From the NCBI GenBank assembly GCA_964514965.1, contig CAZETV010000001.1:693063-725062 (forward strand): a stretch of DNA of 32,000 bases. The letters run 5' to 3'. The position numbers and the translations under genes are program-made. Below are positions 144 through 15,976 of this stretch, in pieces. The notes below the pieces were generated by a model, which did not search any database, was not told the DNA's origin, and was given only the letters and a program-made list of their open reading frames with translations. Position 1 is the first letter of the stretch; every line of letters starts with the position of its first letter. This DNA comes from Candidatus Hadarchaeota archaeon (lineage in GTDB: Archaea; Hadarchaeota; Hadarchaeia; Hadarchaeales; Hadarchaeaceae).

Positions 144-1337
144 TTATTCCACCTCAACACCGTAAGCTCGAGCGATTTCGTAAAATGCATCGACGACTTT
201 CTGGAGCTGCTCCTTGGTCAACCCATAAGTGTTGAGCTTCATCATCTTGGTCATCCCCGCGTGAATACCCGCAATTTTCCTTTTCTTGAGTTCCTCATAC
301 AGGAAGAAACCTCTCCGCGGGTGTTTCTTCGCGACTTTGTGGAAGGACGGAGTTTCAAAGGCTACCAATGTATGTTGTCGTGGGCGCTCCCCAAGTTGGT
401 GGAAGTCTTTAATGCGTTCGAACTCCTTGACCAACCACCTAACCTTTTCCACCTCCTCATCCCAACGCTTGACCCGCTCGACCACATGTGGAAAACTCGC
501 CATCAACGTCGCGATGGGGGCACCAAAGACCGGCGGGCACCCAAAAAGGTAGACATCTTTCTTGGTGAAAGCACGACCACTCCATGGCCCCTTAATCGTC
601 GAAGTTCGGAATACCTTTCCCGAGAACTCATAGGTGGTGGCGAGCATTCCAATAGGACCACTCGATGACCACGACTTATGCCCACTACAAACCAAGAAAT
701 CAACCCCCAGTTTCTTCCCATCGACAGGCATCACGCCCGCAGTATAAGCAGCGTTGAGAATGTAGGGCACTCCGTATTCCTTCGCTATCTCCCCTACCCC
801 AGCGGCATCGACGAGGTTCCCGTAACGGTAGTCCACATGCGTGAGCAAAATTGCCGCTGGAAGCTCTCCTGTTTCCCGCTTGACCTCCTCAATCTTCGCC
901 GCGTAATCATCGATTTTTATTTTGAATTCGGGATATCCTCCGTGAGGCACTTCAACTATTTTGAGGCCGTTAACTTCAGCTGCGATATAGGTGGTGTAAT
1001 GCGCAAGCGAGTCAATCACAATTGTATCGCCTGGCTCCGCGATTGACTTGAAGATTGCCTGCTTTGCGCCCCGAGCTCCAGGCGTGAATTGGACTTCATC
1101 CATATTCAAGAACTTTGCAACATCACTTGCAAAATCTAAAATAGGCGGCGTTTTTACTAGGTCTATACGGCTCTCAAGACAGAGGTCGCAGGTGCTGTAT
1201 CCATCGCCGAAGGAAAGCAAAGCCTTTCTGGACTCGGGCGGCAACACACCACCGCGTTGGATGGGATGGACGTTAATCCAACTCTCGTCAACCACCCGGC
1301 GAAGGTTTTTGTATTTATCGACATTTATTTTAACCAT
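144..1337 (-). CDS. pscS: O-phosphoseryl-tRNA:Cys-tRNA synthase (SepCysS), PLP-dependent
   Basis: Fold-type I PLP enzyme with the lysine motif CSGHKS. It has the N-terminal INVHPIQRGG block, the CxxC pair (STCDLC) and a third Cys (LFGCPP) typical of SepCysS. I chose the ATG at 1337 (MVKINVDKY) because GGTGA lies 5-9 nt upstream; the track start at 1358 is less likely. Confidence 0.85.
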   Translation of the reverse strand: MVKINVDKYKNLRRVVDESWINVHPIQRGGVLPPESRKALLSFGDGYSTCDLCLESRIDLVKTPPILDFASDVAKFLNMDEVQFTPGARGAKQAIFKSIAEPGDTIVIDSLAHYTTYIAAEVNGLKIVEVPHGGYPEFKIKIDDYAAKIEEVKRETGELPAAILLTHVDYRYGNLVDAAGVGEIAKEYGVPYILNAAYTAGVMPVDGKKLGVDFLVCSGHKSWSSSGPIGMLATTYEFSGKVFRTSTIKGPWSGRAFTKKDVYLFGCPPVFGAPIATLMASFPHVVERVKRWDEEVEKVRWLVKEFERIKDFHQLGERPRQHTLVAFETPSFHKVAKKHPRRGFFLYEELKKRKIAGIHAGMTKMMKLNTYGLTKEQLQKVVDAFYEIARAYGVEVE

Positions 1338-1413
1338 TAACTCACCTTTGAAAAACATTCACAGGTTATAACCCTAAATAACCTTCTTTATAAATTGGGA
1401 GTAGTTGGTTAAT

Positions 1414-1970
1414 ATGGCCGAAGAACTCACCGATCGATTGCTTCGCCAGCCCCCGACGACCGTGGTAGATTTAGTGATGACCGCGAATGGGCTGAAAACT
1501 GGCTCAGAGATTTTGCGAAATCAACGAGATGAAGAGCTTGAGCGGATTATCAAGGAAATGGGATTAATCTATGAGTGGAAAGACGGGTTCTATCTTGTTG
1601 CTTGCTCGAAGGAAGATATAACCAAGCAGGTACCGACTCGGTCTCGCGCGGACAGTGGTTCGGCATCCCCGAGTGCTATATCCAGAACTATCAGGGAAAA
1701 GACAAGGAGGAGCTTCGAAAGCGGCTCACGCTCGAGGAACTCGAACTCCTCGAACGGAGCGAGGGCGTGCCTGATGAGTTCTACCTCTGATCGATGGGTT
1801 ACATCCCATGCAACATGAGGTGCAAACACACTTTAGATCGTGGGCAAAAAACGCGCGCTGCGCTTGACCAAATTGACTCACGCCTCTGGCAAAAGTTCAG
1901 AAATTTCCACATCCACCGAAGACTCGCAGAGTACGGCGGAGAAATCAGAGTGGCAGAAAGGCGAAAATAG
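1414..1970 (+). pseudogene. disrupted gene for a Cys-motif protein (frame switch near 1620-1650 plus an in-frame TGA at 1788-1790)
   Basis: Frame 1 (ATG 1414) is protein-like up to ...YLVACSKEDITKQ, then degenerates into an S/R-rich tail. Frame 3 becomes protein-like from about 1620 (GQWFGIPECYIQNYQGKDKEELRKRLTLEELELLERSEGVPDEFYL). It stops at TGA 1788-1790 and continues open in the same frame for 59 more codons (SMGYIPCNMRCKHTLDRGQ...AERRK) to TAG 1968-1970. A TATA-like CTTTATAAAT lies at 1386-1395. Confidence 0.45.
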
Positions 1971-2021: not shown

Positions 2022-2999
2022 ATGACAGATAAGATGAAAAAGATTCTGGTCACAGCTGCTTTAGTTCTCTTGATATTAATAGCGGGCGACTCAATAGTAA
2101 AAAACCTGACTAAAAAAGATATGTCACCCGCTACACCCGCCTACCTGCGCGGTTTCGCGTACAACAGCTATGACGACATGACGCAATTTTTAGATCACAT
2201 GAAAGAGGGCAACAGCGTCATGGCTTGGTACGGCGATTGGGACGATGGTGGGCCCGGTGGAGTAGCACGTACGGTCACAGATGACGCAAATCAAAGCAAC
2301 CTCATCCCGCTTGTGATATTCCAGTTCTTCCATCAGGATAACGGTCAACTTCTCCGCCCCCTTGATAACGCAAATAGAACGAACTATAAGGAAATTGCGG
2401 AGAATTACGCATGGGAGCACCATCCGAGATGGTTGGGATTGGGTATAGAGGTTAACATATTGTACGAAAAAAATCCCCAAGATTTCTATGAATTTGTCTC
2501 ATTTTACAACGAGGTCTACGATGCCGTGAAGGCGAAGTCTCCGGAAACAAAAGTTTTCACAGTATTCCAGCTTGAGGCGATTAAAGGTCTTAGCGGTTTG
2601 TCCGGGTCGCACCAGCAGGCGTGGCAACTCATAGATGATTTCAAGCTTGACGCAGTTGGGTTCACGACATACCCTGAGCTGGTGTTTAAGAAACCGAGCG
2701 AAATCCCGGACAACTACTACACAGAGATAGCATTGCACACCAGCAAGCCCATCTTATTTACCGAGATTGCATGGGCGTCCGCGCCGCTGAACACTGCGTG
2801 GGATGCCGATACCACGGCCAGCACACAGGCCGAATTCGTCACGAAGTTCTTTAACTTCACAAGAAGTCTCAACAAAGAACTCGTCGTGTGGCCGTTCATG
2901 CACGACTTGCCCGCCAGCTTTGGTATATTCAAAAAAATGGGGTTAAGAACAGCTAATGACGTGGCCAAGCCCGCGTGGGATGTCTGGGCTAGCTCTTGA
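2022..2999 (+). CDS. membrane-anchored or secreted hypothetical protein, possibly a TIM-barrel glycosidase-like fold
   Basis: 325-aa ORF with an N-terminal hydrophobic anchor (KKILVTAALVLLILIAG). Glu-containing strands GLGIEVN and ILFTEIAW are reminiscent of clan GH-A acid/base and nucleophile positions, but the canonical NE motif is absent. The functional call is weak. Confidence 0.6.
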   Translation: MTDKMKKILVTAALVLLILIAGDSIVKNLTKKDMSPATPAYLRGFAYNSYDDMTQFLDHMKEGNSVMAWYGDWDDGGPGGVARTVTDDANQSNLIPLVIFQFFHQDNGQLLRPLDNANRTNYKEIAENYAWEHHPRWLGLGIEVNILYEKNPQDFYEFVSFYNEVYDAVKAKSPETKVFTVFQLEAIKGLSGLSGSHQQAWQLIDDFKLDAVGFTTYPELVFKKPSEIPDNYYTEIALHTSKPILFTEIAWASAPLNTAWDADTTASTQAEFVTKFFNFTRSLNKELVVWPFMHDLPASFGIFKKMGLRTANDVAKPAWDVWASS

Positions 3000-3142
3000 G
3001 TAGAAGAGCGCTTACCTATCACCTCTAAAAAATGAATAATCGGAGGTCAAGCCCTAGCGCGAGGCGAAATAACCCCGCCAGCGTCAATTTCGCTGCATCG
3101 TGCTGGGGTTCTTTCAGATATAACTGCGAGGAATGATAATCC

Positions 3143-3154
3143 TTTTAAAGTATA
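3143..3154 (+). promoter_or_regulatory. TATA-like box upstream of the thrC-like operon
   Basis: TTTTAAAGTATA lies 33-44 nt upstream of ATG 3187, and a GAGGTG Shine-Dalgarno sits at 3176-3181. Two TAACTAG direct repeats follow at 3153-3159 and 3165-3171. Confidence 0.4.
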
Positions 3155-3186
3155 ACTAGATATTTAACTAGGTTTGAGGTGTTAAA

Positions 3187-4452
3187 ATGGGCAACGTGAC
3201 CGGATTGAGGTGCCGAGAATGCGGCGAGGTTTATCTTAAAAAACTTGTCCACGCCTGCAGTCTGTGCTTCGGCCCACTCGACGTCACCTACGATTATGGG
3301 AAAATTGCCGAGGTAGTGTCGAAAGAATCAATCGCCTGTGGCCCCCCGACCCTTTGGCGCTACCGAGATCTCCTGCCCATCGAGCAATATGCCTCAATAG
3401 TCGACATAGGCGTAGGTTTCACCCCGTTACTGCGAGCCGATAACCTCGCTAGTGAGCTTGGTCTCAAAGAAGTTTACGTGAAGAACGACTCGGTCAATCC
3501 TACCTTCTCTTTCAAGGATCGACCATCAAGCATCGCGGTTTCTAAGGCGATCGAATTCGGCTCTCCCGCAGTGGGTGCTGCTTCGACGGGCAACCTCTCG
3601 GGAGCGATGGCTGCCCATGCTGCTAAAGCTCGCCTGCCATGTTTCATCTTTATCCCCGAGGGCCTAGAAATCTCAAAGGTCGCTCAAACGCTCTCATACG
3701 GCGCCCACATCATCGAAGTCAAGGGCACTTACGACCAAGCGAACCGGCTTGCCACAGAAATAGCCCTTACGAGCAACATCGCCTTCGCAAACATCAATGT
3801 TCGCCCTTACTATGTCGAGGGCTCGAAAACGCTGACGTTCGAAGTCTGTGAACAGTTAGGCTGGAAAGCGCCCGAACACATCATCATACCTGTTGCTTCG
3901 GGAGCTCTTCTTCACGCTGCTTGGCGAGGGCTCAAAGAGCTTGAGGAAGTCGGGCTCATCGATAATTGGAGTACCCGAATCTCCGCAGCACAAGCTGAGG
4001 GCTGTTCTCCAGTAGTTCAAGCTTTACTGAAAGGAGCTAGCGAGATAAAACCCGTCGAGAAGCCAGACACTACTTGCAAATCGCTTGCCATAGGCGACCC
4101 CGCCGATGGGTACTACGCCATCCAAGCCGTACGAGCCACCAAGGGCTCAGGCAGGAATCCTAACGACAAACAGATTCTCGAAGGCGTCAAACTCCTAGCC
4201 AAGACGGAAGGTGTATTCACCGAGCCCGCGGGTGGAACCGTCGTTGCTGCACTCAAACAACTTGTTGAGGACGGCGAGGTTGAGCGCGACGAACAAGTGG
4301 TACTCTACATCACTGGTAACGGGCTGAAGACGCAGGAAAGCATTGCCTCTGCGCTTCCCAAGACTCACCGAATTGAGCCAGCAATCGAAAGTTTTAGGGG
4401 GCTAGTCAACAAACTTCAAACTCCCGGAGTAAAATGGTTGGAGGGGATGTAA
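3187..4452 (+). CDS. thrC: threonine synthase family (ThrC-fold) PLP enzyme with N-terminal Zn-ribbon; context suggests a thiocarboxylate-dependent sulfhydrylase role
   Basis: N-terminal CRECG...CSLCFG ribbon as in archaeal ThrC. PLP-lysine motif NPTFSFKDRP (K110) and an ASTGN loop are present. It is first in a tightly coupled gene string; the next ATG comes 1 nt after its stop. Confidence 0.8.
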   Translation: MGNVTGLRCRECGEVYLKKLVHACSLCFGPLDVTYDYGKIAEVVSKESIACGPPTLWRYRDLLPIEQYASIVDIGVGFTPLLRADNLASELGLKEVYVKNDSVNPTFSFKDRPSSIAVSKAIEFGSPAVGAASTGNLSGAMAAHAAKARLPCFIFIPEGLEISKVAQTLSYGAHIIEVKGTYDQANRLATEIALTSNIAFANINVRPYYVEGSKTLTFEVCEQLGWKAPEHIIIPVASGALLHAAWRGLKELEEVGLIDNWSTRISAAQAEGCSPVVQALLKGASEIKPVEKPDTTCKSLAIGDPADGYYAIQAVRATKGSGRNPNDKQILEGVKLLAKTEGVFTEPAGGTVVAALKQLVEDGEVERDEQVVLYITGNGLKTQESIASALPKTHRIEPAIESFRGLVNKLQTPGVKWLEGM

Positions 4453-4453
4453 A

Positions 4454-5557
4454 ATGGTGAAAGTAAATGTGAAATTTTCGGTGATGTTCAAGGACGCGAC
4501 AGAGACCACTACGACCACTGTGGATATGGCGGGTGAGACGGTAAAGGATCTCATTGACACCCTGATCAAACAGTTTGGACCGCAATTTGGCGAGCGAATA
4601 CTAGATGCGAAGACGGGCGGAGTCTGGAGGTTCGTCAACATCTTCGTTAACGGCAAGGATATCCGGAACCTACAGGGGGTCGACACGAAGCTTGAAGAGG
4701 GGGCCGAGGTGAGATTGATCCCTGCGGTCGCGGGCGGTAGCGAGTTTCTCGGCTTCACTCAGGACCAAATCGTGCGCTACAGCCGACAGATAATTTTGAA
4801 GGAAGTCGGCGGCAAGGGGCAGCGAAAGCTCCTGAACTCGAAGGTATTGGTCGTGGGTGCTGGGGGCCTCGGCTCGCCCGCCTCCCTCTACCTCTCTGCG
4901 GCAGGCGTAGGAAAGATTGGAATCATCGACAGCGACAAAGTCGACCTGAGCAACCTCCAGCGGCAGCTCCTCCACACGAATGACGACATCGACCGACCGA
5001 AAATCGAGTCAGCCAAAGAGAAACTCTTAAAGATAAATCCTGAGATAGAAGTCATCACCTATAATGAGAAGCTTACCACTGATAACGCTTTAAACATCGT
5101 CGGGGAATGGGACTTCGTGCTCGACGGAAGCGACAACTTTCCCACAAAATTTCTCATAAACGACGCCTGTGTGCTTAAAGGTGTTCCACTTTCCCATGGT
5201 GGTGTCCTGCGCTTCACGGGGATGACGACAACTATCCTTCCCGGCAAGGGGGCCTGCTATCGCTGCCTGACGCCCGAAGCTCCCCCTCTTGGGATGATCC
5301 CGACCTGCCAGGAGGCCGGGGTGCTGGGAGCGGTACCAGGCGTGATTGGGACGATCCAAGCCACAGAGACTTTGAAATACCTGCTCGGCGCCGGTAATCT
5401 CCTAGTCGGACGCATCCTCTTCTTCGACGCGCTCGAGATGTGCTTCGAGGAGTTTGAGCTAAAGCGAGACCCCAAGTGCCAAGTCTGTGGAAACCAACCT
5501 ATTATCAAGGATCCATCCCAAGTGGACTACGGCCATGTCTGCGAGGTGCGATTCTGA
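4454..5557 (+). CDS. fusion protein: ThiS/MoaD-like beta-grasp sulfur-carrier domain (aa 1-95, ends AVAGG) plus ThiF/MoeB-type E1 adenylyltransferase
   Basis: The N-terminal 95 aa align with the standalone beta-grasp protein at 8400-8684 and end in GG (codons 4733-4738). The E1 core follows immediately: RYSRQIIL, VLVVGAGGLGSP, SNLQRQ, the active-site region PTCQEAGVLG, and Zn-site CxxC pairs CYRC and CQVC. There is no rhodanese domain. Confidence 0.85.
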   Translation: MVKVNVKFSVMFKDATETTTTTVDMAGETVKDLIDTLIKQFGPQFGERILDAKTGGVWRFVNIFVNGKDIRNLQGVDTKLEEGAEVRLIPAVAGGSEFLGFTQDQIVRYSRQIILKEVGGKGQRKLLNSKVLVVGAGGLGSPASLYLSAAGVGKIGIIDSDKVDLSNLQRQLLHTNDDIDRPKIESAKEKLLKINPEIEVITYNEKLTTDNALNIVGEWDFVLDGSDNFPTKFLINDACVLKGVPLSHGGVLRFTGMTTTILPGKGACYRCLTPEAPPLGMIPTCQEAGVLGAVPGVIGTIQATETLKYLLGAGNLLVGRILFFDALEMCFEEFELKRDPKCQVCGNQPIIKDPSQVDYGHVCEVRF

Positions 5558-5796
5558 TGGTTGAACACAAGGTCAACCAAAAAATCGACATTCGTGGTGA
5601 TGTCTGCCCCTACACCTTCGTCAAGTCCAAGCTCGCCCTTGAGGGTCTCAAGAGCGGTCAAGTATTGGAGGTAATCGTCGACCACACTCCCGCGACCGAG
5701 AATGTGCCACGTAGCATGGAGGCCGAGGGACACAATGTGCTCGAGGTCGCAAAGATAGGCGAGCACGAGTGGCGAATTGTTATCCAGAAGGCCTAG
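5557..5796 (+). CDS. tusA: TusA/SirA-family sulfurtransferase
   Basis: 79 aa with the motif IDIRGDVCPYTFVKSK (the conserved Cys-Pro of TusA). ATG 5557 shares its A with the E1 stop TGA 5555-5557. The track extension back to 5476 overlaps the E1 C-terminus in another frame and is not credible. Confidence 0.8.
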   Translation: MVEHKVNQKIDIRGDVCPYTFVKSKLALEGLKSGQVLEVIVDHTPATENVPRSMEAEGHNVLEVAKIGEHEWRIVIQKA

Positions 5797-6209
5797 TGGG
5801 TCTCGATTTCCAGCTCTTCAACTTTGCTTTTTTTCAAAATGTATGCTTTTCGTTCTAAAACCCGGTCCTTCACCACGCTCAAAATCAGCCACGCTACCTC
5901 CGGCCATAAATTCATTATCTCTGCATCACGCGCACTCACATAAGCATGAATGTTAGGGTGGGAGTGGTATATCCCAACAAGCTCGAACCCACTCCGCTCC
6001 GCGCGGTCGACCGCCTTAAACACGAATTCAGGATCTGCCTCGAACGCAACGGGGGATCCGAGCACGTTCTCTGCTTCGACGGCTTCCTCGACCTCAATTA
6101 CGTCCTCGCTGGACTTGCCGAAAATCAGACCACAGCACTCGTAGGGGAAATTCTTCAGCGTGTGGGCCTCGATCGCCTTTAGGTCCTTGGGTTTTAGCTT
6201 GAGCTTCAT
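5793..6209 (-). CDS. JAMM/MPN+ metallopeptidase (Mec+/QbsD/HcyD-like)
   Basis: Complete JAMM signature: an upstream Glu (PYECCGLIFG) and GIYHSHPNIHAYVSARD (HxHx7Sx2D). The ATG at 6209 (MKLKLK) follows a G-rich SD; the track TTG start at 6221 is an alternative. Its stop overlaps the tusA stop on the palindrome CTAG at 5793-5796. Confidence 0.85.
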   Translation of the reverse strand: MKLKLKPKDLKAIEAHTLKNFPYECCGLIFGKSSEDVIEVEEAVEAENVLGSPVAFEADPEFVFKAVDRAERSGFELVGIYHSHPNIHAYVSARDAEIMNLWPEVAWLILSVVKDRVLERKAYILKKSKVEELEIETH

Positions 6210-6377
6210 CCGCCCCCCCAACTAACTCACAGTCTTGCTAAAAATAGCTCGTTTTGAGTTATTCAGATGACGTCTACTAGACCTGCTCCCGCCATAAATA
6301 TCTCAAAGGAACCATCAGATTTTGTAAGTTTTGGTTTACACGCCTCGCGGTTTAAGGGAACGTTTGTTCTACTAAGC

Positions 6378-7028: not shown

Positions 7029-7048
7029 ATATGAATGTATATTCATAT
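7029..7048. promoter_or_regulatory. perfect 8-4-8 palindrome ATATGAAT-GTAT-ATTCATAT overlapping the acr3 TATA region; probable ArsR operator
   Basis: Read directly from the sequence. It lies 17 nt upstream of the preferred acr3 ATG (7065) and overlaps the TTTATAT TATA-like element at 7026-7032. An ArsR gene is co-transcribed downstream. Confidence 0.55.
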
Positions 7049-7064
7049 CTTAGCAGATGAAAAT

Positions 7065-8120
7065 ATGGTCGAAAGAAGATTGGGCGTATTCGAGAAATAC
7101 CTTACAGTCTGGGTCATCGCCTGTATAATCGCTGGTATAGTTCTAGGTAGGTTCCTTCCCACGTTAGCTCAAACTCTCAGCAATATTCAGTACGCCAACG
7201 TTTCAATCCCGATTGCGATTTGCCTTTTCTTCATGATTTATCCGATAATGATTCAAATCGACTTCAAAAAGGTAATCCAAGCTGGGAAAACCCCAAAACC
7301 CGTTGGGATAACACTGTTCGTGAACTGGCTAATCAAACCTTTCACCATGGCCTTCTTTGCTTGGCTCTTCATGTCAGTGATTTGGGCCCCGTTCATAACT
7401 CCTCAGATGGCCTCACAGTACGCGGCGGGAATGATACTTTTAGGTGTCGCCCCGTGTACAGCGATGGTGCTGGTCTGGAGCTATCTCTCTCGAGGTAACA
7501 TGGGGCATACGCTGGTGATGGTCGCCATAAACTCTCTGATTATGCTAGTACTCTATGCACCCCTCGGAGGATTTCTGCTTGGCGTTGCACAGATTCCGGT
7601 TCCGTGGATTACGATTGCGTTTTCCGTTGGAGTTTACGTAGGATTACCGCTGGTGGCGGGCTACTTCTCACGGAAGGAACTCCTGCGAAGGAAGGGGCGC
7701 GAGTGGTTCGACGGTTTTTCTTCCCGCCTCCACTACGTCTCAATCATCGCCTTACTCATCACACTCGTGGTGCTATTCAGTTTGCAAGGGGATGTAATCA
7801 TTCAACAACCACTGGTCATCGCAATGATCGCTCTGCCCCTGATGATCCAGACTTTCCTGATATTCTGGGTGAGCTATGGTATATCCAAAGTAGGGGGACT
7901 GACATACGAGGATGCTGCGCCTACATCGCAAATAGGCGCGAGCAACCATTTCGAAGTTGCGATTGCTGTGGCAACGGTGCTCTTTGGCCTCAACTCTGGA
8001 GCCGCGCTCGCGACTGTAGTGGGGGTTTTGATTGAAGTCCCCATCATGCTCACGCTAGTGAAAATATGCCTTCGAACCCAACATTGGTTCCCGAAAAATG
8101 GAGCGAGTAAAATTGACTGA
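7065..8120 (+). CDS. acr3: arsenite efflux permease, ACR3 family
   Basis: Polytopic membrane protein whose N-terminus FEKYLTVWV and motif [13 protein letters not shown] are characteristic of ACR3. I preferred ATG 7065 because the track start at 7035 falls inside the promoter palindrome. Confidence 0.85.
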
Positions 8121-8388
8121 TGGACAACTTCGATTACTCAAATGCGTGGCAGATGAAACGAGATTCCAGATTCTCCTAACATTGAAAAAGGGCGAGCGTT
8201 GCGTGTGCGAGATTATGGACGAACTCAACAAGGAGCAATCGTTAATATCACACCATCTGCAAGCCCTACGTAAGTGCGGACTAATCGATAGACGGCGCGA
8301 GGGAAAAAAGATAATGTACCGACTTTCGGACCCTTCGATTTTGAGATTCTTGGAAGATATCAAGGAACTATCCAAGAGACTCTACTGA
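8098..8388 (+). CDS. arsR: ArsR/SmtB family metalloregulator
   Basis: wHTH protein with the metal-site motif [11 protein letters not shown] (ELCVCDL-type) and [12 protein letters not shown]. It overlaps the acr3 end by 23 nt. Confidence 0.85.
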
Positions 8389-8399
8389 GCACTTCAGCA

Positions 8400-8684
8400 C
8401 TAGTCGCTTGCACCGGGCGGAAAAATCGCGACCTCGTCCTTATGCTTGAGCTTCGTGTGAATCCCGCGGATATGTTGAATCTTTCGGCCGTTAAGCAAGA
8501 TGTTGAAATTCTCCTGAAGCTCCCCCGTTGTCGGGTCAAGGAGCATTTCTACCACCCGAGGATGACGCCGGCTGAGCTTCATGAACAAGGCATCAACAGT
8601 CTCGTCCTCGCCAATCGAAACTTTTATCGTACTAGTGCCAGCCTTCTCGCGCAGTTCACCGTGCAACTTTACTACCACTTCCAT
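8400..8684 (-). CDS. standalone ThiS/MoaD-like beta-grasp protein lacking the C-terminal Gly-Gly (ends PPGASD)
   Basis: 94 aa, alignable end to end with aa 1-95 of the carrier-E1 fusion (NILLNGRKIQHIRGIHTKLKHKDEVAIFPPGASD versus NIFVNGKDIRNLQGVDTKLEEGAEVRLIPAVAGG). S-D occupies the G-G positions. Confidence 0.75.
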   Translation of the reverse strand: MEVVVKLHGELREKAGTSTIKVSIGEDETVDALFMKLSRRHPRVVEMLLDPTTGELQENFNILLNGRKIQHIRGIHTKLKHKDEVAIFPPGASD

Positions 8685-8855: not shown

Positions 8856-10037
8856 ATGAAAGCCGTGCTCGCTTACAGCGGAGGGCTGGATACTAGCATC
8901 GCGATTCGTTTACTCCAAGACAAGTACAAGGCCGATGTCATCACAGTTTCAGTTGATGTCGGACAGGATCCCAAGGAGCTAAAGGAAATAGCAGCAAAGG
9001 CGAAACAGCTAGGTGTTATTAAACACATTCACGTCGATGCGCGCAAAGAATTCGTCGAAGATTATATCTTCCGCAGCATCAAAGCGAACGGGCTCTACGA
9101 GGGGTATCCTCTCTCTACAGCTCTCGCCCGTTATCCAATCGCGAGCAAACTCGTTGAGGTCGCACGCAAAGAAAAGGCCGACGCCGTGGCACACGGTTGC
9201 ACAGGTAAGGGAAACGACCAGTTTCGCTTCGATACAACCATTGCAATCAAAGCCCCCGAACTCAAAATCATTGCGCCAATTCGAGAACTTAATCTCGATC
9301 GGAAGTGGGAACTCAAGTATGCGAAAAAACAGAACATCGCCCTCCCTAAAGTAGGTAAGTCCTATAGCATTGACGAAAATCTATTGGGACGATCCATTGA
9401 GGGAGGTGTGCTCGAAGACCCCTCACATGCTCCACCTGAAGAGATTTACGTGCGTACTCGCCCACCCGAAAAAGCTCCCCCCAAACCACGCATCATTGAA
9501 ATCGAGTTCAAGAAAGGTGTGCCGATTGCTATCGATAAAAAACGCATGGACGGTATCCAACTCATCACCAAACTAAACAAGATAGCTGGCGAGTACGGCG
9601 TCGGTAGAATCGAACTCATCGAAGATAGAATCCTCGGGCTGAAGGCGCGGGAGAACTATGAAGCACCGGCAGCTACTGTCCTGATACAAGCTCATCGAGC
9701 GCTTGAACAACTCGTGCTGACGAAACAGGAACTGGCATTTAAGCAAATAATCGACCAAACTTGGGCGGACTTGGCGTACAGTGGGCTATGGTTCGACTCT
9801 CTACGCGAGGACTTAGATGCTTTCATCGATAGCACGCAAAAGAGAGTTACTGGCAAGATAAAGGTTGAACTCAACCGCGGCAACTCGCGCGTGGTGGGCC
9901 GCAGCTCACCGTACTCCCTCTACAACAAGGGACTTGTTTCATTTGAGCGCTACGGCTTCGACCAGCGCGATGCTATCGGAGTTATAAAATTCCACGCACT
10001 TCAGAGCAAGATCCTACACAAGAAGAAGGGTGATTAG
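8856..10037 (+). CDS. argG: argininosuccinate synthase
   Basis: AYSGGLDTS ATP-PPase motif, the GCTGKGNDQxRF block, and typical length. GGTGAGG SD lies upstream. Confidence 0.95.
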   Translation: MKAVLAYSGGLDTSIAIRLLQDKYKADVITVSVDVGQDPKELKEIAAKAKQLGVIKHIHVDARKEFVEDYIFRSIKANGLYEGYPLSTALARYPIASKLVEVARKEKADAVAHGCTGKGNDQFRFDTTIAIKAPELKIIAPIRELNLDRKWELKYAKKQNIALPKVGKSYSIDENLLGRSIEGGVLEDPSHAPPEEIYVRTRPPEKAPPKPRIIEIEFKKGVPIAIDKKRMDGIQLITKLNKIAGEYGVGRIELIEDRILGLKARENYEAPAATVLIQAHRALEQLVLTKQELAFKQIIDQTWADLAYSGLWFDSLREDLDAFIDSTQKRVTGKIKVELNRGNSRVVGRSSPYSLYNKGLVSFERYGFDQRDAIGVIKFHALQSKILHKKKGD

Positions 10038-11516
10038 GTGCTTCGCCGGGGACGCTTTGAGCAAGAAATGGACCCTCTGGCTAGCGAGTATATCTCCTCG
10101 ATGGAAGCTGATGCTAGGATTTTCTACTCGGTCGTGCAAATCAACATGGCCCACACAATTATGCTCGCTGAGCGCAAGATTATCGACAGCGCAGACGCGG
10201 CTGCCATCCTCCAAGCGCTCTACAAGCTTCACGAGCAAGGCGTTAGTGGGTTGGACCTTCGCCCAGAGCTCGAGGACATTCATATGGCAGTTGAGGATTT
10301 TGTGACAAAAGCGACGAGCGAAGAAGTTGGAGGCAAGCTCAACACTGCGAAGAGCCGCAACGACCAAGTCGCCACGGCAATCCGTTTGACTCTGCGCAAG
10401 AACCTACTAGATGTTGAGGATAGTCTATTAGAACTAGTAAGTACCTTGGTCGCACTCGCCGAAAAAAATATCGATACGATAATGCCCGGCTACACTCACC
10501 TCCAAGTGGCTCAACCCACCACCTTCGCGCACCACCTCACCGCCTACTCTTTCGCCTTTCTACGTGATATCGATCGCATCGAACAGGCCTATGAGGTCAC
10601 GAACTCATGTCCAATGGGAGCCTGTGCGTTCGCGGGAACGAGCTTCCCCATCGATCGTTTGCGGGTGGCGCACATATTGGGTTTTAAGCGTACCGACGAG
10701 AACACCATGGATGCCGTCAGCTCACGCGATTTCGCCTTGCAGGTTATGAGCGCCCTAGCAATCGCAATGGTTAATCTCAGCAGGCTGGCCGAGGAGCTCG
10801 TGCTCTGGAGTTCGGAGGAATTCAACTTCATCGAATTGCCCGAGGAATTCGCGGCGACAAGCAGCGCCATGCCACAGAAGAAGAACCCAATCGTGGCCGA
10901 ACTTGCGCGCGCGAAGGCTGGGCGTGTCTTCGGGAACCTCTCAGGGGCCTTTGCGGTGATGAAGGCCATCCCCCAATCTTATAACCTCGACCTTCAGGAC
11001 TTAACGCCCTCACTGTGGAATTCCGTCGACGAGGTGAGGAATGGCGCGAAAGTGATGGCAAAACTAATCAGCGCAGCCGAGCCGAATCGAGAACTCATGC
11101 GCAGGCGGGCAGAAGGAGGATTCGCGACCGCGACCGAACTTGCCGATGCGCTTGTGTGGAAGGGGTTGGCCTTCAGGGACGCTCACACAATCGTTGGAAG
11201 ACTAATTGCCCGCGCAACCCAAGAGGGCCGGGCTTTAGGAGAGCTGAAAATAGAGGACCTACAAGCAGCATCGAAAGAAGTTTTCGACAAAGAGGTTCAA
11301 CTAACGCCCGAGGAGCTGAGAGAAGCTCTCGACCTCAACAAATGCATTGCTGCTCGGAAACTACCTGGTGGCCCCGCGCCAAAAGCTGTTAAAAATCAAC
11401 TCAAGTTAGTAAAGCGAGGAGCAAAACACCGCGCAAAGATTACGCGCACCCGAAGGCGAGCAATCACAAAAGCAGAAGTAAAGTTATTGAAGGAAGCCAA
11501 GAGGCGTTCGCGATGA
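10038..11516 (+). CDS. argH: argininosuccinate lyase with a basic C-terminal extension
   Basis: Fumarate-lyase signature SSAMPQKKNP and the TAKSRNDQV block. GTG start sits directly after the argG stop. The final ~33 aa are Lys/Arg-rich. Confidence 0.92.
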   Translation: MLRRGRFEQEMDPLASEYISSMEADARIFYSVVQINMAHTIMLAERKIIDSADAAAILQALYKLHEQGVSGLDLRPELEDIHMAVEDFVTKATSEEVGGKLNTAKSRNDQVATAIRLTLRKNLLDVEDSLLELVSTLVALAEKNIDTIMPGYTHLQVAQPTTFAHHLTAYSFAFLRDIDRIEQAYEVTNSCPMGACAFAGTSFPIDRLRVAHILGFKRTDENTMDAVSSRDFALQVMSALAIAMVNLSRLAEELVLWSSEEFNFIELPEEFAATSSAMPQKKNPIVAELARAKAGRVFGNLSGAFAVMKAIPQSYNLDLQDLTPSLWNSVDEVRNGAKVMAKLISAAEPNRELMRRRAEGGFATATELADALVWKGLAFRDAHTIVGRLIARATQEGRALGELKIEDLQAASKEVFDKEVQLTPEELREALDLNKCIAARKLPGGPAPKAVKNQLKLVKRGAKHRAKITRTRRRAITKAEVKLLKEAKRRSR

Positions 11517-12541
11517 AAATCACGGCTGCGGTAGTTGGAGCATCAGGTTACACGGGAGTAGAACTCTTCAGGCTGCTCGCCGGCCACCCCGAGGTAAGTC
11601 TCATTGGAGCCTACGACATCCAAAACGTCGGGAAACTCGTGGGTGATATCCATCCAAATCTTCGTGGAATAGTTAATCTAAAAATAACTGAACCCGACTA
11701 CATGAAAATCGGAAAGCAGGCCGACGTCGTCTTCGTGGCTACTCCGCACCGTGTCGCGATGAACTTTGTGCCAGAGTTGCTCAAGGGGAAAGCAAAGATA
11801 ATTGACCTTAGCGCGGACTACCGACTCGATGACGTTAAAGTGTATGAGCGATACTACACCAAGCACAAGAGTCCAATGGTCAAAGGAGTTTATGGGATAC
11901 CTGAACTTCACCGCGCAAAAATCAAGCGTGCACGCCTCGTCGCAAATCCGGGATGCTATCCGACAGCTGCAATTCTGAGCTTGGCACCGCTAGTCAAACA
12001 ACACCTGATTGACCTCGACCACATCGTAATCGACGCTAAGACTGGAACCTCCGGTGCGGGGGCTACACCCAGTGAGGTGACTCATCATCCATTAGTATGT
12101 TCAAACATTCGAGCTTACGCCGCGACCACCCACCGCCACGCCCCTGAAATCGACCAAGAGTTGAGCAAGCTGGCTGGAGAAAAGGTCAAAGCCCACTTCA
12201 CACCTCATCTTATCCCAATCGTACGAGGAATCCTCTCGACAGCACATGTCTTCCTGAAAAAGTCGACTGTTAAAAAATCGTTACTTGGCCTCTACCAAAA
12301 GTTCTACGCCAGCGAGCCCTTCGTGCGGATACTTGAGGAACTACCGCAGGTGAACTTCGTGGCTGGATCAAACTACTGCAACATTGGATTCGAACTCGAC
12401 GCGACGAGCAATCGACTCGTCGTGGTTTCGACTATCGATAATCTCGTCAAGGGCGCCTCGGGACAGGCTATTCAAAACATGAATCTGATGTTCGGATTTG
12501 ATGAAACAAAGGGATTAGAGGCCCCAGCGTTACGGCCATGA
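11513..12541 (+). CDS. argC: N-acetyl-gamma-glutamyl-phosphate reductase
   Basis: N-terminal GASGYTG NAD(P)-binding motif and the active-site ANPGCYPTA. ATGA overlap with argH. Confidence 0.9.
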   Translation: MKITAAVVGASGYTGVELFRLLAGHPEVSLIGAYDIQNVGKLVGDIHPNLRGIVNLKITEPDYMKIGKQADVVFVATPHRVAMNFVPELLKGKAKIIDLSADYRLDDVKVYERYYTKHKSPMVKGVYGIPELHRAKIKRARLVANPGCYPTAAILSLAPLVKQHLIDLDHIVIDAKTGTSGAGATPSEVTHHPLVCSNIRAYAATTHRHAPEIDQELSKLAGEKVKAHFTPHLIPIVRGILSTAHVFLKKSTVKKSLLGLYQKFYASEPFVRILEELPQVNFVAGSNYCNIGFELDATSNRLVVVSTIDNLVKGASGQAIQNMNLMFGFDETKGLEAPALRP

Positions 12542-12618
12542 CAGCTTTATGGTCGAAACTAGTAAACCCTGCGCGAAAAGATTAAAGTTGTCCTCGTACC
12601 TCTTTTATTGGTGTTCGC

Positions 12619-13851
12619 ATGATCACTGTGCTTGAGGGCGGTGTAACAACGGTTCCTGGATTCCTAGCGGCTGGCGTGCGAGCTGGGATCAAACGCCGCG
12701 GACTTGACATGATGTTACTCGCGAGTGAAGATGGACCGATTACATCCGCGGGGATCTTCACCACAAATTTAGTGAAGGGCGCCCCGGTGCTCGTTACAAT
12801 GAAACACATAAAAAACGGAACGCTCGGAGCGATAGTCGTGAATTCGGGAAGCGCGAACGCGTACACTGGTAAGCGGGGGTTGCGGGACGCGCTTCGGATG
12901 ACTCGCCTCGCGGCGCACCTGCTGAAACTCCGCACAAATGATGTTGCCGTTGCATCGACTGGCATAATAGGATTACACTTGCCCATGCGGAAAATAGAGA
13001 CTGGAATCCGTGCGGCCGTCGAAGAACTATCGAATTCGCGAGAGGCAAGCCTGAGCGCAGCTAAGGCAATCATGACCACTGACACCACACCCAAGGAAAT
13101 TGCCATCCGGGTCGACCTCGAGGATGGAACACCTGTAACTATCGCGGGTATGACAAAAGGTGCCGGTATGATTCGCCCAAATCTACGAACCGCAACAATG
13201 CTCGCATTTATCGTCACAGATGCCGTGGTGAGCTCTGCAGCACTCAAGGCAGCACTTCAAAACTCGACCGATCAGAGTTTCAATATGATTAATATCGACA
13301 ACGAAACAAGCACCAGTGATATGGTGCTCGCGCTCGCGAACGGGCGCGCAAAAAATCGTCCAATCACTCTAAAGCGCCAAGATAAACAGTTTCAGGCAGG
13401 GCTCGATTATGTACTTACTGAACTTGCGTGGATGATCGCCAAAGACGGGGAGGGCGCATCGCATTTAATCGAGGTCCAAATTAAAAACGCCCGCAACCGA
13501 GAGGACGCACGCCGCGCCGCCCTTGCGATTACGGGGTCGAATTTAATCAAAGCTGCTATCTTCGGACGCGATCCCAACTACGGTCGTATAATCGCTGCCC
13601 TTGGTTATTCGGGAGCGTCGTTTGACCCTTCAAAACTGAGTTTAGAGCTAGTCAGCGATCGAGGCCGCGTTAACTTAGTCGTGCACGGAAAACCTAAAGC
13701 AAAGCGAGCGTTCAAGCGGGCGCGTGACATCATGCGCAGCAAAGAAATCGAAATCCACGCTGATCTCGCCGCCGGAAAAGCCTGTGCTACCGCCTGGGGG
13801 TGCGACCTAACTTATGACTATGTACGCATCAACTCGAAATACACGACCTAG
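12619..13851 (+). CDS. argJ: bifunctional ornithine acetyltransferase / N-acetylglutamate synthase
   Basis: ArgJ family with the autoprocessing site context RTATMLAFIVTDA and the KGAGMIRPN block. Confidence 0.92.
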   Translation: MITVLEGGVTTVPGFLAAGVRAGIKRRGLDMMLLASEDGPITSAGIFTTNLVKGAPVLVTMKHIKNGTLGAIVVNSGSANAYTGKRGLRDALRMTRLAAHLLKLRTNDVAVASTGIIGLHLPMRKIETGIRAAVEELSNSREASLSAAKAIMTTDTTPKEIAIRVDLEDGTPVTIAGMTKGAGMIRPNLRTATMLAFIVTDAVVSSAALKAALQNSTDQSFNMINIDNETSTSDMVLALANGRAKNRPITLKRQDKQFQAGLDYVLTELAWMIAKDGEGASHLIEVQIKNARNREDARRAALAITGSNLIKAAIFGRDPNYGRIIAALGYSGASFDPSKLSLELVSDRGRVNLVVHGKPKAKRAFKRARDIMRSKEIEIHADLAAGKACATAWGCDLTYDYVRINSKYTT

Positions 13852-13897
13852 TTTGGATTATCTTTAAGAACATGTAATTTAATGAAATCAATTTAGG

Positions 13898-14788
13898 ATG
13901 AAAATGCAAGACCGCGCCACAATATTGCTCGAGGCCCTGCCTTACATCCAGCAATTCCACGGCAAGACGATAGTTATCAAGCTCGGCGGAAGCGTGATGG
14001 GAAAAGAAAAACTGCTCGATGCCATGCTCCGCGACATCGTGCTCCTAAGCTACGTTGGCATGAAGATCGTGATCGTACACGGCGGCGGACCTGAGGTAAG
14101 TGAGGAGATGCGCAAACTGGGGAAGAAGCCGAAGTTCGTCGAAGGGCTCCGCGTGACTGATGAGAAAACGATGGAGATTCTGCATGAGCAGCTCGCGGGA
14201 AAAATCAATAAGGAAATCGTGCTGGGGATAAACAAACATGGAGGGCGTGCGGTGGGTATCTCGGGTATGGACGGGAATTTCATTCGTGCTCACAAACTCC
14301 TCTACAAGACCACGACGAGCAAAGGGCGAGAGGTCGAAGTAGATCTTGGGTTGGTTGGTGAAGTCGAGCAGATAAATCCAACCGTCATAAACTATCTCGT
14401 GGGCACAGGATACATTCCGGTGATAGCTCCGATAGGCATAGACGCAGAAGGGCGCAGTCTGAACATCAATGCCGACGTCGTGGCTGCCGAACTCGCAGAC
14501 GCTATGCATGCAAAAAAGCTCATTCTGCTCACTGACGTTATAGGCGTAATGCGCGACCCGAAGGATGAAAAAACACTCATCTCACAGCTAACTGCTGAGG
14601 AAACACAGAAGCTCATCCAAGAAGGAATCATAAAGAAGGGTATGATCCCAAAGATTGAGGCCTGTCTGCGGGCCGTGCAGGGGAGCGTGGAGCGCTCTCA
14701 CATTATCTGCGGCACCGCGCCTCACGTGCTTTTGCTTGAAATTTTGACCGAAAGCGGTATAGGCACAATGATTGAACGAGGCAAGTAA
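13898..14788 (+). CDS. argB: acetylglutamate kinase
   Basis: Amino-acid kinase fold: VIKLGGS, VIVHGGGP, and the NINAD block. Confidence 0.92.
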   Translation: MKMQDRATILLEALPYIQQFHGKTIVIKLGGSVMGKEKLLDAMLRDIVLLSYVGMKIVIVHGGGPEVSEEMRKLGKKPKFVEGLRVTDEKTMEILHEQLAGKINKEIVLGINKHGGRAVGISGMDGNFIRAHKLLYKTTTSKGREVEVDLGLVGEVEQINPTVINYLVGTGYIPVIAPIGIDAEGRSLNINADVVAAELADAMHAKKLILLTDVIGVMRDPKDEKTLISQLTAEETQKLIQEGIIKKGMIPKIEACLRAVQGSVERSHIICGTAPHVLLLEILTESGIGTMIERGK

Positions 14789-15976
14789 ATGCAGCGCATC
14801 AAAGAACTCGATGAGCGCTACATTGCAAGTACCTACAGACGCCAACCTTTAGCAATTGTAAAGGGCCGTGGGATGTTCGTCGAGGACATTCAGGGAAAAC
14901 GTTACTTAGATTTCGTGGGGGGGATAGCGGTCTGCTCTTTAGGATACTGCCATCCAGCCCTAGTCAAAGCAATCTCCACTCAAGCAAAGAAGTTAATGCA
15001 CACATCAAATCTTTATTATATCCAACAACAAGCAGAGCTAGCAGCATTGCTCGCACGTGTCGTCCCAAAGGGTATCAACAAGTTTTTCTTTTGCAACTCT
15101 GGCACAGAAGCTATCGAGGGTGCATTCAAGCTCGCGATCAAACACACCAAACGTCAGCGTATTATCACTATGCAGGGCTCCTTTCACGGCAGGACGGCAG
15201 CTAGCGTTGGCGCTACATGGAAATCCAGTTACCGTGAGCCATTTGAGGCCCTCATCCCCAAAATCTTCGATTTCGTGCCTTTCAACGACCTGGCTGCTGT
15301 AGAGCGAGCGATGGGCGAGCAAACGGCTGCTGTAATCGTAGAGGCAATTCAGGGCGAGGGCGGCGTAAACTTGCCATCCAACGATTACCTGCCAGGACTA
15401 CGAAAACTATGCGATGAGCATGGAGTACTCTTAATCTGCGACGAGGTTCAAACTGGAATGGGGCGCACGGGTAAATGGTTCGCGTGCGAGCACTGGAGTG
15501 TGGAACCTGATGAACTCACAATGGCGAAGGCGCTTGGCGGCGGTTTTCCAATCGGGTGCCTCAGCGCTAGAGCTGAAGTGATGGAGTCTTTTTCGCCAGG
15601 TGACCATGCTTCAACTTTTGGCGGGAATCCCTTGGCATGTGCGGCTGCAAAAAGCGTGATAAAAACTATGATGAAGTTAAAGCTCCCCCAACGAGCCACG
15701 AAAATTGGTGAGTACTTCAAAAAGCGCCTGAATGAACTCGCAGACAAACACGAGTGCGTGCAAGAGGTGCGAGGGCTCGGGCTAATGCTTGCGATGGAAC
15801 TCTCCACCAAACAAATTGCCGACACTACACTAGTCAAAGCTAGAGAACGAGGTTTCCTGATAAACTGCACCGCCGATAAAGTTTTGAGGTTCGTCCCGCC
15901 ATTGATAGTTGAGCGAGAACATGTCGATCGCTTGATAGAGGCTTTGGATTCAATATTTGTCGAGGTTGAGAAGTGA
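14789..15976 (+). CDS. argD: acetylornithine aminotransferase (class III PLP aminotransferase)
   Basis: Blocks SGTEAIEGAFK, CDEVQTGMGRTG and TMAKALGGGFP (PLP Lys). It starts at the base after the argB stop. Confidence 0.9.
   Translation: MQRIKELDERYIASTYRRQPLAIVKGRGMFVEDIQGKRYLDFVGGIAVCSLGYCHPALVKAISTQAKKLMHTSNLYYIQQQAELAALLARVVPKGINKFFFCNSGTEAIEGAFKLAIKHTKRQRIITMQGSFHGRTAASVGATWKSSYREPFEALIPKIFDFVPFNDLAAVERAMGEQTAAVIVEAIQGEGGVNLPSNDYLPGLRKLCDEHGVLLICDEVQTGMGRTGKWFACEHWSVEPDELTMAKALGGGFPIGCLSARAEVMESFSPGDHASTFGGNPLACAAAKSVIKTMMKLKLPQRATKIGEYFKKRLNELADKHECVQEVRGLGLMLAMELSTKQIADTTLVKARERGFLINCTADKVLRFVPPLIVEREHVDRLIEALDSIFVEVEK

Follow-up and report, generated by a model that had tools for sequence, protein, structure and literature searches.

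A Hadarchaeota Gene Cluster Probably Encoding MetM/MetO-Type, Protein-Thiocarboxylate-Dependent Homocysteine Synthesis

Introduction

Carrier-thiocarboxylate routes to sulfur-containing amino acids are known from Begley-lab work on HcyS/HcyF/HcyD/MetY of Wolinella succinogenes and CysO/MoeZ/Mec/CysM of Mycobacterium tuberculosis, and the MetM/MetO pathway of homocysteine synthesis in Streptomyces albulus was reportedly described by Hasebe and co-workers in 2024. HcyD and Mec hydrolyse carrier–amino-acid amides, and enzymes of the JAMM1 type cut after the Gly-Gly of their carriers, linear fusions included. To our knowledge, homocysteine synthesis in non-methanogenic archaea without the classical trans-sulfuration and sulfhydrylation enzymes is poorly documented. 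Here, we analysed a 32,000-nucleotide stretch of DNA of a Candidatus Hadarchaeota archaeon (assembly GCA_964514965.1, contig CAZETV010000001.1, positions 693,063–725,062; hereafter the window), in which a gene for a threonine synthase (ThrC)-like enzyme dependent on pyridoxal phosphate (PLP) is followed by genes for a fused beta-grasp carrier and E1, a TusA protein and a JAMM protein. Judging from sequence comparison, this cluster is probably a MetM/MetO-type module for protein-thiocarboxylate-dependent homocysteine synthesis. The original prediction for this DNA, made by a model from the sequence, had pointed with some doubt to a ThrC-like, thiocarboxylate-dependent route in Streptomyces, which is the MetM/MetO pathway; accordingly, the system it took to be without an archaeal precedent of its kind is better described as an archaeal orthologue of an already known pathway.

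In the passages that deal with it, GapMind 2026 presents MetM as a ThrC homologue that makes homocysteine from O-phosphohomoserine and the MetO thiocarboxylate with Mec and MoeZ as helpers, and calls it "often misannotated" as threonine synthase. The relevant part of PMC12172450 places an S-adenosylmethionine (SAM) riboswitch upstream of S. albulus metM, and reports a Microcystis "ThrC" with 51.6% identity to MetM and a MetO-like neighbour. In its entry on cluster 356.1, PMC11237513 records 61 of 98 Thaumarchaeota, besides a small number of other assemblies, as having a MoaD-MoeB fusion, reads it as part of molybdenum cofactor (Moco)/molybdopterin biosynthesis, and points out that the C-terminus of the carrier becomes free only once a fusion of this kind is cleaved.

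Results

Organization of the gene cluster

The cluster consists of the following features:

3187–4452, plus strand: ThrC-like (MetM-like) gene, stop codon TAA at 4450–4452
4454–5557, plus strand: carrier–E1 fusion gene, ATG at 4454, TGA at 5555–5557
4454–4738, plus strand: MetO-like beta-grasp carrier domain, amino acids 1–95 of the fusion (ThiS in Pfam; SAMP1 and MoaD_arch in NCBIfam)
4739–5557, plus strand: E1-like adenylyltransferase domain of the MoeB/ThiF/UbaA type (ThiF in Pfam, E = 4e-83)
5557–5796, plus strand: tusA, TAG at 5794–5796
5793–6209, minus strand: JAMM/MPN+ gene, convergent with tusA

The tight packing of four genes that had been read from the sequence was borne out, as the list of open reading frames (ORFs) and the raw sequence agree on coordinates and overlaps. 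The fusion gene starts 2 nt past the thrC-like stop, base 5557 is common to the TGA of the fusion gene and the ATG of tusA (5557–5559), and 5793 is the last base of the minus-strand JAMM gene, whose stop codon overlaps the convergent stop of tusA in CTAG at 5793–5796. The start of the JAMM gene needs correction: instead of the TTG at 6221 proposed originally, the ATG at 6209 (MKLKLKPK...) is the likelier one, because a homologue in a related Hadarchaeota contig (L001) begins at the equivalent Met. Profile hidden Markov models (HMMs) of Pfam assigned all four proteins to the families that had been predicted for them: PALP/ThrC (E = 7e-70), ThiS at amino acids 15–95 (E = 8e-12) plus ThiF at amino acids 109–344 in a single ORF, TusA (E = 6e-23) and Prok-JAB (E = 5e-18).

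Relationship of the PLP enzyme to MetM

The ThrC-like protein folds as a threonine synthase (PLP fold type II), and four cysteines, C9, C12, C24 and C27, form a zinc ribbon at its N-terminus. Its closest homologues were proteins of Hadarchaeota/Hadesarchaea with 75–91% identity, and then those of MSBL1 with 66%. An alignment of ThiS-linked homologues was used to scan GTDB at one genome per species, which yielded at least 597 loci, of which the best 80 were analysed; L-numbers (L001 etc.) denote homologous loci compared with the window. The enzymes of these 80 loci were 48–56% identical to that of the window, with one Hadesarchaea locus at 88%, and came from archaea (Nitrososphaerota, Bathyarchaeum, Hydrothermarchaeota, Thermoproteota, Methanobacteriota) as well as bacteria (Cyanobacteria, Actinomycetota, Chloroflexota, Nitrospirota, Aquificaceae, Planctomycetia, Elusimicrobiota and others). 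Small HMMs for ThiS, ThiF, TusA and JAB, built from three to seven sequences and therefore able to miss divergent genes, were run against all six-frame segments of the loci and detected a ThiS-like ORF directly downstream of the ThrC-like gene, on the same strand, in 76 of the 80 loci and in more than 15 phyla. The tail of this ORF reads [IV][IVL]PA[VI][AS]GG. One of the four loci without it has just 32 nt of contig beyond the gene.

The link between this gene pair and methionine came from bacteria. A tblastn search of PLSDB found in Nonomuraea gerenzanensis (L009) a counterpart of the window enzyme with about 44–45% identity over 97% of the query, zinc ribbon included. Directly 5' of its gene lies a SAM riboswitch (RF00162, 68.7 bits), and a 91-amino-acid ThiS-like gene ending in IIPAVAGG comes after it. 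The best 120 matches to the Nonomuraea protein were all from Streptosporangiales and were all annotated "threonine synthase". An Rfam search of further bacterial loci found RF00162 directly 5' of the ThrC-like gene in 10 of 11, which with Nonomuraea makes 11 of 12; the riboswitch-bearing loci tested belong to Actinomycetota and Chloroflexota. The locus without a SAM riboswitch, unlike the other ten scanned, is L063 of a Chloroflexi genome, which has a T-box leader (104 bits, 7116–7542) just downstream of its MetO-like gene. In the window no Rfam family, that of the SAM riboswitch included, reached its gathering threshold. SAM riboswitches are not known from archaea. It is the clade, not this locus, that the SAM riboswitch ties to methionine.

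A neighbour-joining (NJ) tree of 38 sequences with 200 bootstraps included four solved ThrCs (Aquifex, Bacillus, Thermus, Mycobacterium) and four other thrC-annotated genes. The ThiS-linked proteins, including those of the window and Nonomuraea, formed one bipartition in 200/200 bootstraps, so that the window enzyme is not nested in the sampled threonine synthases, a placement that the original prediction had named as part of what would refute it. It is 39% identical to the four solved ThrCs, as compared with 45–56% to clade members of other phyla. The two groups also differ in the motifs that flank the PLP lysine and form the PLP-phosphate loop: the clade has NPT[FYH]SFKDR[PV] and P[VIT]ASG (NPTFSFKDRP and PVASGALL in the window enzyme) in place of the canonical NPTGSFKDRG and PVGNAGN. 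Thus, the window enzyme neither groups with the solved ThrCs nor carries their motifs. The zinc ribbon, taken at first as a distinguishing feature, is common to unrelated thrC-like genes as well; those of Haloterrigena, Azospirillum, Aliarcobacter and Chlorohelix have it, are 32–36% identical, have no ThiS neighbour and fall outside the clade, which rules the ribbon out as a clade marker.

In five bacterial loci, belonging to Chloroflexi, Nostoc and Nitrospirota genomes, a canonical thrC paralogue with NPTGSFKDRGM and PVGNAGN and without a zinc ribbon lies less than 8 kb from the MetM-like gene (L063 2564–3691, L065 16117–17214, L068 9811–10896, L072 15632–16735, L074 2138–3265). As both coexist in these loci, the MetM-like gene and canonical thrC are distinct paralogues. 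Within the 32-kb window there is no second gene of the PALP/ThrC family. Taken together, clade, carrier synteny, riboswitches and paralogues identify the window enzyme, as far as its sequence can tell, as a member of the MetM clade.

The annotation "threonine synthase" does not separate the two paralogues. The window protein scored 287 bits with TIGR00260 (cut-off 167) and 310 bits with NF006050 (cut-off 303); both models, the top ones, are named threonine synthase, and no MetM-specific model was among the NCBIfam matches listed. The SAM-riboswitch-linked MetM-like protein of Nonomuraea likewise passes TIGR00260, with 270 bits, and therefore this model cannot tell MetM-like proteins from ThrC.

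The carrier–E1 fusion and TusA

The second gene of the cluster encodes the carrier and its presumed activating enzyme as one polypeptide. The Gly-Gly in which a free carrier would end is internal, at amino acids 94–95 (..LIPAVAGG/SEFLGF...), with the E1 domain directly after it. The carrier tail runs unbroken into SEFLGFTQDQIVRYSRQ, a stretch that aligns with the N-terminus of a free-standing E1 (MNLNEIKRYSRQ in L005). The carrier domain is 36% identical (61 bits) to the MetO-like protein of Nonomuraea and shares with it an identical IPAVAGG tail. The Gly-Gly of the junction was kept in 13/13 fused homologues examined. The same fused ORF is present in the independent assemblies L001, L003 and L010; it is not an assembly artefact.

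The E1 domain has a GAGGLGS nucleotide loop, CxxC pairs in CYRC and CQVC, and a loop cysteine in PTCQEAGVLG. It matched ThiF/MoeB structures of the Protein Data Bank (PDB) with E = 4e-56, and its matches to the MoeB, UbaA and MoeZ models of NCBIfam were all under the equivalog cut-offs. No rhodanese domain was matched in the E1 protein, the MoeZ model aligning only over its positions 15–275 of 392, and a TusA gene comes next, which agrees with the proposal that TusA takes the place of the rhodanese. The TusA protein has the Cys-Pro motif in GDVCPYTF and matched TM0983 and TsuB/YeeD in the PDB. Its gene adjoins that of the E1 in the window, L001, L003, L005, L010, L012 and L028, and lies upstream of it in L068; TusA-like matches more than 2 kb upstream were seen in L026.

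The carrier–E1 fusion is not confined to Hadarchaeota, and the belief that this architecture had no precedent has to be given up. It occurred in 10 of the 80 loci (one Hadesarchaea, one Elusimicrobiota and eight Nitrososphaerota), and it has been catalogued as a MoaD-MoeB fusion in PMC11237513. The pathway is already known, and the fused architecture is common to Nitrososphaerota and was previously catalogued under another interpretation. All eight Nitrososphaerota fusion genes start between −24 and +45 nt from the end of the MetM-like gene, and because of this position we argue that the fusion serves homocysteine synthesis in these organisms, too. The Nitrososphaerota fusions (L015 3913–5238, L039 7408–9003, L069 9258–10604, L088 7477–8934 and others) have an extra C-terminal domain of about 100 amino acids with the pattern ..EELCGRDRGKRTY..GAKDE.DA..IY... 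It was considered as a JAMM domain and rejected, having neither a Pfam match nor the HxHx7Sx2D motif.

Other lineages extend the carrier past its Gly-Gly by one to four residues or, in Planctomycetia, by a NIL domain. In the latter (L017 9264–9812, L057 6331–6903) the MetO-like carrier is fused to the NIL domain after the Gly-Gly, and a JAMM gene lies 3–5 kb upstream. A NIL domain is likewise part of the NIL-ferredoxin protein in the homocysteine pathway of methanogens. The window itself has a second ThiS/SAMP1/MoaD-like protein, encoded at 8400–8684 on the minus strand (94 amino acids, 70.8 bits with the SAMP1 model), which ends in ..FPPGASD without Gly-Gly; no frameshift that might hide a Gly-Gly end is obvious in the DNA.

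The JAMM protein

The JAMM protein has an intact metal site, HSHPNIHAYVSARD (HxHx7Sx2D), together with the upstream glutamate in ECCG, and its nearest solved relative is JAMM1 of Pyrococcus furiosus (E = 4e-17). L001 and L010 have the gene at the corresponding position. ORFs with the JAMM motif were present in seven loci: the window, L001 and L010, which have E1 fusions; L007, which has a carrier–CysK-like fusion; L017 and L057 with their carrier–NIL fusions; and L025, where the carrier is not extended. A JAMM gene thus accompanied 6 of 17 loci with a long carrier extension or fusion, as compared with 1 of 66 without (Fisher p = 2e-4), although these loci are not phylogenetically independent and represent about three independent lineages.

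The original prediction had cast the JAMM protein as the hydrolase that releases a carrier–homocysteine adduct. This role is possible, and it is no less likely that the enzyme liberates the carrier from its fusion. Most likely, the first role of the protein would be to cleave after Gly95 and thereby free the carrier; by analogy, it may additionally hydrolyse the carrier–homocysteine amide.

Gene neighbourhood in relatives

Two further features lie upstream of the cluster:

144–1358, minus strand: SepCysS (Sep-tRNA:Cys-tRNA synthase; NF006810 572 bits, TIGR02539 510 bits)
3100–3186, plus strand: putative operon promoter region, conserved among four Hadarchaeota loci

The presence of SepCysS near the cluster, noticed from the outset, stands, and the four-gene neighbourhood proved largely conserved: in Hadarchaeota contigs with 89%, 88% and 75% identity, the thrC-like gene, the ThiS–E1 fusion and tusA were kept together in 3/3, and the convergent JAMM gene in 2/3. 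In all three, DUF169 and SepCysS are on the opposite strand and DUF483 is just upstream. In L003/L004 (75% identity) the cluster runs on into TauE, sulfite reductase, PAPS reductase, TusA and ATP sulfurylase, and in L001 it adjoins sulfite reductase and TusA. A 60% identical archaeal locus has the parts unfused, with a ThiS ending in GG, a CxxCxxCC protein, ThiF, TusA and DUF169, and sulfite-reductase-like genes upstream. The loci of Bathyarchaeota and Nezhaarchaeales add a ThiS–CysK-like fusion, an E1, a class-V aminotransferase and a JAB protein. Throughout the compared relatives, the gene context is that of sulfur assimilation; no genes of threonine or Moco synthesis were found in the neighbourhoods, and MoaE, MoaA and NcsA were not found in the cluster. 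The ThiS–CysK-like proteins (L007 2433–4052, L008 10150–11772) are about 540 amino acids long and consist of a ThiS part ending in PAVSGG, a linker of about 200 amino acids and a CysK/CysM-like PALP part. They look like fused CysO–CysM-type cysteine synthases standing beside the MetM-like gene.

Upstream of the MetM-like gene, conservation was seen at 3100–3186 of the window, 7900–8000 of L010 and 5900–6000 of L001. A TATA-like CTTTTAAA(G) is located about 40 nt 5' of the MetM-like ATG, between two copies of (A/G)TATAACT, and a Shine-Dalgarno-like GAGGTG precedes the ATG. The paired (A/G)TATAACT copies could be a binding site for a regulator.

In Hadarchaeota, SepCysS is conserved next to the cluster, as a neighbour and not necessarily as a part of the pathway. 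According to Mukai et al. 2017, SepCysS of MSBL1/Hadesarchaea comes with a handful of genes of sulfur metabolism and has a small "tRNA-Thr-ED"-like gene next to it. The latter may be the DUF483 gene, which in Hadarchaeota relatives is intact (184–193 amino acids) and directly upstream of the MetM-like gene. In the window the DUF483 gene (1414–1970, plus strand) is broken by a frameshift near 1625–1630 and, near 1789, by an in-frame TGA in place of the Gly of relatives. The block has DUF169 and SepCysS on one strand and DUF483, MetM-like, MetO–E1 and TusA on the other, followed by JAMM; it is conserved in both L001 and L010 and, lacking the JAMM gene, in L003/L004. On account of this block, one might see in the carrier–E1 and TusA of Hadarchaeota a single sulfur hub, whose carrier thiocarboxylate or TusA persulfide feeds both the MetM-like enzyme, for homocysteine, and SepCysS, for tRNA-bound cysteine. 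We consider such a shared hub unlikely; if true, the long search for the physiological sulfur donor of SepCysS would have its answer.

Discussion

Proposed pathway

Beside the observed gene content, synteny, clade membership and conserved motifs, we infer the chemistry of every step from homology and context. The 367-amino-acid proprotein would be cut by the JAMM protein after Gly94-Gly95 to give a MetO-like carrier of 95 amino acids with a free C-terminal glycine, and this glycine (Gly95) would be adenylated by the E1 domain. A persulfide on the TusA cysteine, replacing the MoeZ rhodanese, would then supply the sulfur that converts the acyl-adenylate to carrier-COSH. The MetM-like PLP enzyme is predicted to eliminate phosphate from O-phospho-L-homoserine, and the carrier thiocarboxylate to add at C-gamma in place of water at C-beta. 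Release of homocysteine, which would go on to methionine, would be either spontaneous or the work of JAMM, hydrolysing after an S-to-N acyl shift. The idea of a gamma-replacement on O-phosphohomoserine, put forward in the original prediction as the simplest hypothesis, finds support in the clade, the carrier synteny, the SAM riboswitch and the sulfur context. Since cysteine is made on tRNA by SepCysS, the route would sulfurate methionine while bypassing free cysteine.

Several points weigh against this assignment. NCBIfam still scores the window enzyme as a threonine synthase, with NF006050 and TIGR00260 over their cut-offs. The tie to S. albulus MetM is indirect, running via the synteny of SAM riboswitch and MetO in actinomycetes and via published identities of cyanobacterial proteins. 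In the portion of PMC12172450 that treats it, the Microcystis homologue had threonine synthase and deaminase activity in vitro, and a MetM role in vivo was not clear. Moreover, no JAMM gene was found nearby in the fused L003/L004 or in any Nitrososphaerota fusion locus, which makes the role of JAMM as the maturase the least secure step.

Alternative explanations

The carrier thiocarboxylate might be transferred to another acceptor, either O-phosphoserine, which would give free cysteine, or one leading to a different sulfur metabolite, as with cysteate synthase. CysM of M. tuberculosis takes O-phosphoserine with CysO-COSH, and this organism, having SepCysS, is geared to phosphoserine. Cysteate synthase is a member of the ThrC family with a zinc ribbon, and its model TIGR03844 aligns to the window enzyme from residue 7; the score, however, was merely 86 bits against a cut-off of 325, and cysteate synthase was rejected. 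The SAM-riboswitch control of the bacterial orthologues points to methionine, and the separate ThiS–CysK-like fusion of Bathyarchaeota and Nezhaarchaeales suggests that the two tasks are divided and that cysteine is made by the CysK-like enzyme. The characterised MetM takes O-phosphohomoserine, as stated in the MetM passages of GapMind 2026. We regard a different acceptor as very unlikely.

It is highly improbable, too, that the cluster combines an ordinary threonine synthase with a general SAMP system for Moco synthesis, tRNA thiolation or conjugation. An ordinary ThrC would not be expected in a clade set apart from the solved ThrCs in all NJ bootstraps, with a ThiS gene downstream in nearly all loci analysed, a SAM riboswitch upstream in nearly all bacterial loci searched, and canonical thrC paralogues in the same loci. 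It is true that the threonine-synthase models were the top NCBIfam matches and that the window has no second thrC. Likewise, the scores of E1 and carrier with UbaA/MoeB and SAMP1/MoaD models are almost as good, the solved JAMM nearest to that of the window is of the desampylase type, and PMC11237513, where it deals with the fusion, takes the same Thaumarchaeota protein as MoaD-MoeB of Moco synthesis. However, the cluster has no MoaE, MoaA or NcsA gene, and the Nitrososphaerota fusions without exception begin at the end of a MetM-like gene.

That the fused beta-grasp is a permanent regulatory or docking domain of the E1, a separate free carrier being the real substrate, is very unlikely: a second ThiS/SAMP1-like gene does lie 2.6 kb off and some fused loci have no nearby JAMM, but this second protein, lacking Gly-Gly, looks unfit for adenylation. 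The fused domain resembles it less (28%, 45 bits) than it resembles Nonomuraea MetO (36%, 61 bits), has the exact MetO-type tail PAVAGG in 13/13 fusions and holds the position of the free MetO gene, straight after the MetM-like gene.

Other features of the window

The window has a G+C content of about 50%. An ORF of 325 amino acids (2022–2999, plus strand), flanked by the DUF483 remnant on one side and the MetM-like gene on the other, has an N-terminal hydrophobic segment and gave a weak glycoside-hydrolase-53 match (E = 0.003, below the cut-off); it is absent from this place in L001, L003 and L010. An SBF/ACR3-like transporter gene at 7035–8120 overlaps the gene of an ArsR/SmtB-type regulator at 8098–8388, and the pair probably serves metal(loid) resistance, unrelated to the methionine cluster. 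A full row of arginine biosynthesis genes (argG, argH, argC, argJ, argB, argD, argF) occupies 8856–16908, and as this row is complete, amino-acid biosynthesis has been kept despite the small genome.

Significance

A ThrC-like gene widely annotated "threonine synthase" is placed here in the MetM clade, which takes in Hadarchaeota, MSBL1, Nitrososphaerota (ammonia oxidisers too), Bathyarchaeia, Hydrothermarchaeota and others, and in metabolic reconstructions of such archaea this gene should be counted under methionine synthesis and no longer under threonine synthesis. The Thaumarchaeota "MoaD-MoeB fusion" probably serves methionine synthesis, instead of or besides Moco synthesis. Additionally, the carrier–E1 proprotein offers a clean natural test case in which a JAMM enzyme would release a ubiquitin-like protein from its linear fusion, and the Hadarchaeota cluster, with all partners within 3 kb beside SepCysS, is convenient for reconstitution in vitro.

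Comparison with known systems

As in the MetM/MetO system of S. albulus, the gene of a ThrC-homologous PLP enzyme is directly 5' of that of a ThiS/MoaD-like carrier with a Gly-Gly end. There, the E1 MoeZ forms the thiocarboxylate and the JAMM hydrolase Mec matures the carrier, and the window has counterparts of both; O-phosphohomoserine and homocysteine are the substrate and product there and are presumed to be so here. The window enzyme also shares its clade with the SAM-riboswitch- and MetO-linked genes of actinobacteria. In contrast to S. albulus, the host is an archaeon of the Hadarchaeota, there is no SAM riboswitch, and the identity to the actinobacterial homologue is about 44–45%. Its carrier is the N-terminal domain of the E1, so that endoproteolysis would be obligatory, and not the trimming of one residue. 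A rhodanese is absent from the E1, which the TusA gene follows; E1, TusA and JAMM are clustered with MetM.

The Wolinella and M. tuberculosis routes follow the same logic, in which a beta-grasp thiocarboxylate made by an E1 is used by a PLP enzyme on an activated hydroxy-amino acid, with a JAMM protein processing the carrier, the adduct or both. Their PLP enzymes are MetY, of fold type I, and CysM, of the CysK family, whereas that of the window belongs to the ThrC family; their substrates are O-acetylhomoserine and O-phosphoserine, and their carriers, unlike that of the window, are free-standing.

Among archaeal systems, the homocysteine route of methanogens runs by COG1900 and NIL-ferredoxin (MA1821/MA1822), from aspartate semialdehyde and sulfide. 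It resembles the proposed one in being archaeal, associated with SepCysS and able to give homocysteine without free cysteine; its proteins and substrate are unrelated to those of the window. This route is mentioned in PMC5424206.

SAMP/UbaA/HvJAMM1 and JAMM1 of Pyrococcus belong to the same families as the carrier, E1 and protease of the window, whose NCBIfam equivalog scores for UbaA, SAMP1 and desampylase were at or below the cut-offs. Unlike in the SAMP system, the context is a PLP enzyme and sulfur assimilation, with no pointer to protein conjugation. The fusion of PMC11237513 has the same ThiS/MoaD–ThiF/MoeB order as that of the window. In contrast to the reading it was given there, the fusions of Hadarchaeota, the eight Nitrososphaerota and Elusimicrobiota are directly downstream of a MetM-like gene, and we therefore argue for homocysteine synthesis instead of, or besides, molybdopterin synthesis. 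What distinguishes the window is that a MetM-like enzyme, a carrier–E1 proprotein, TusA in place of a rhodanese, and a JAMM protein are all encoded in one cluster.

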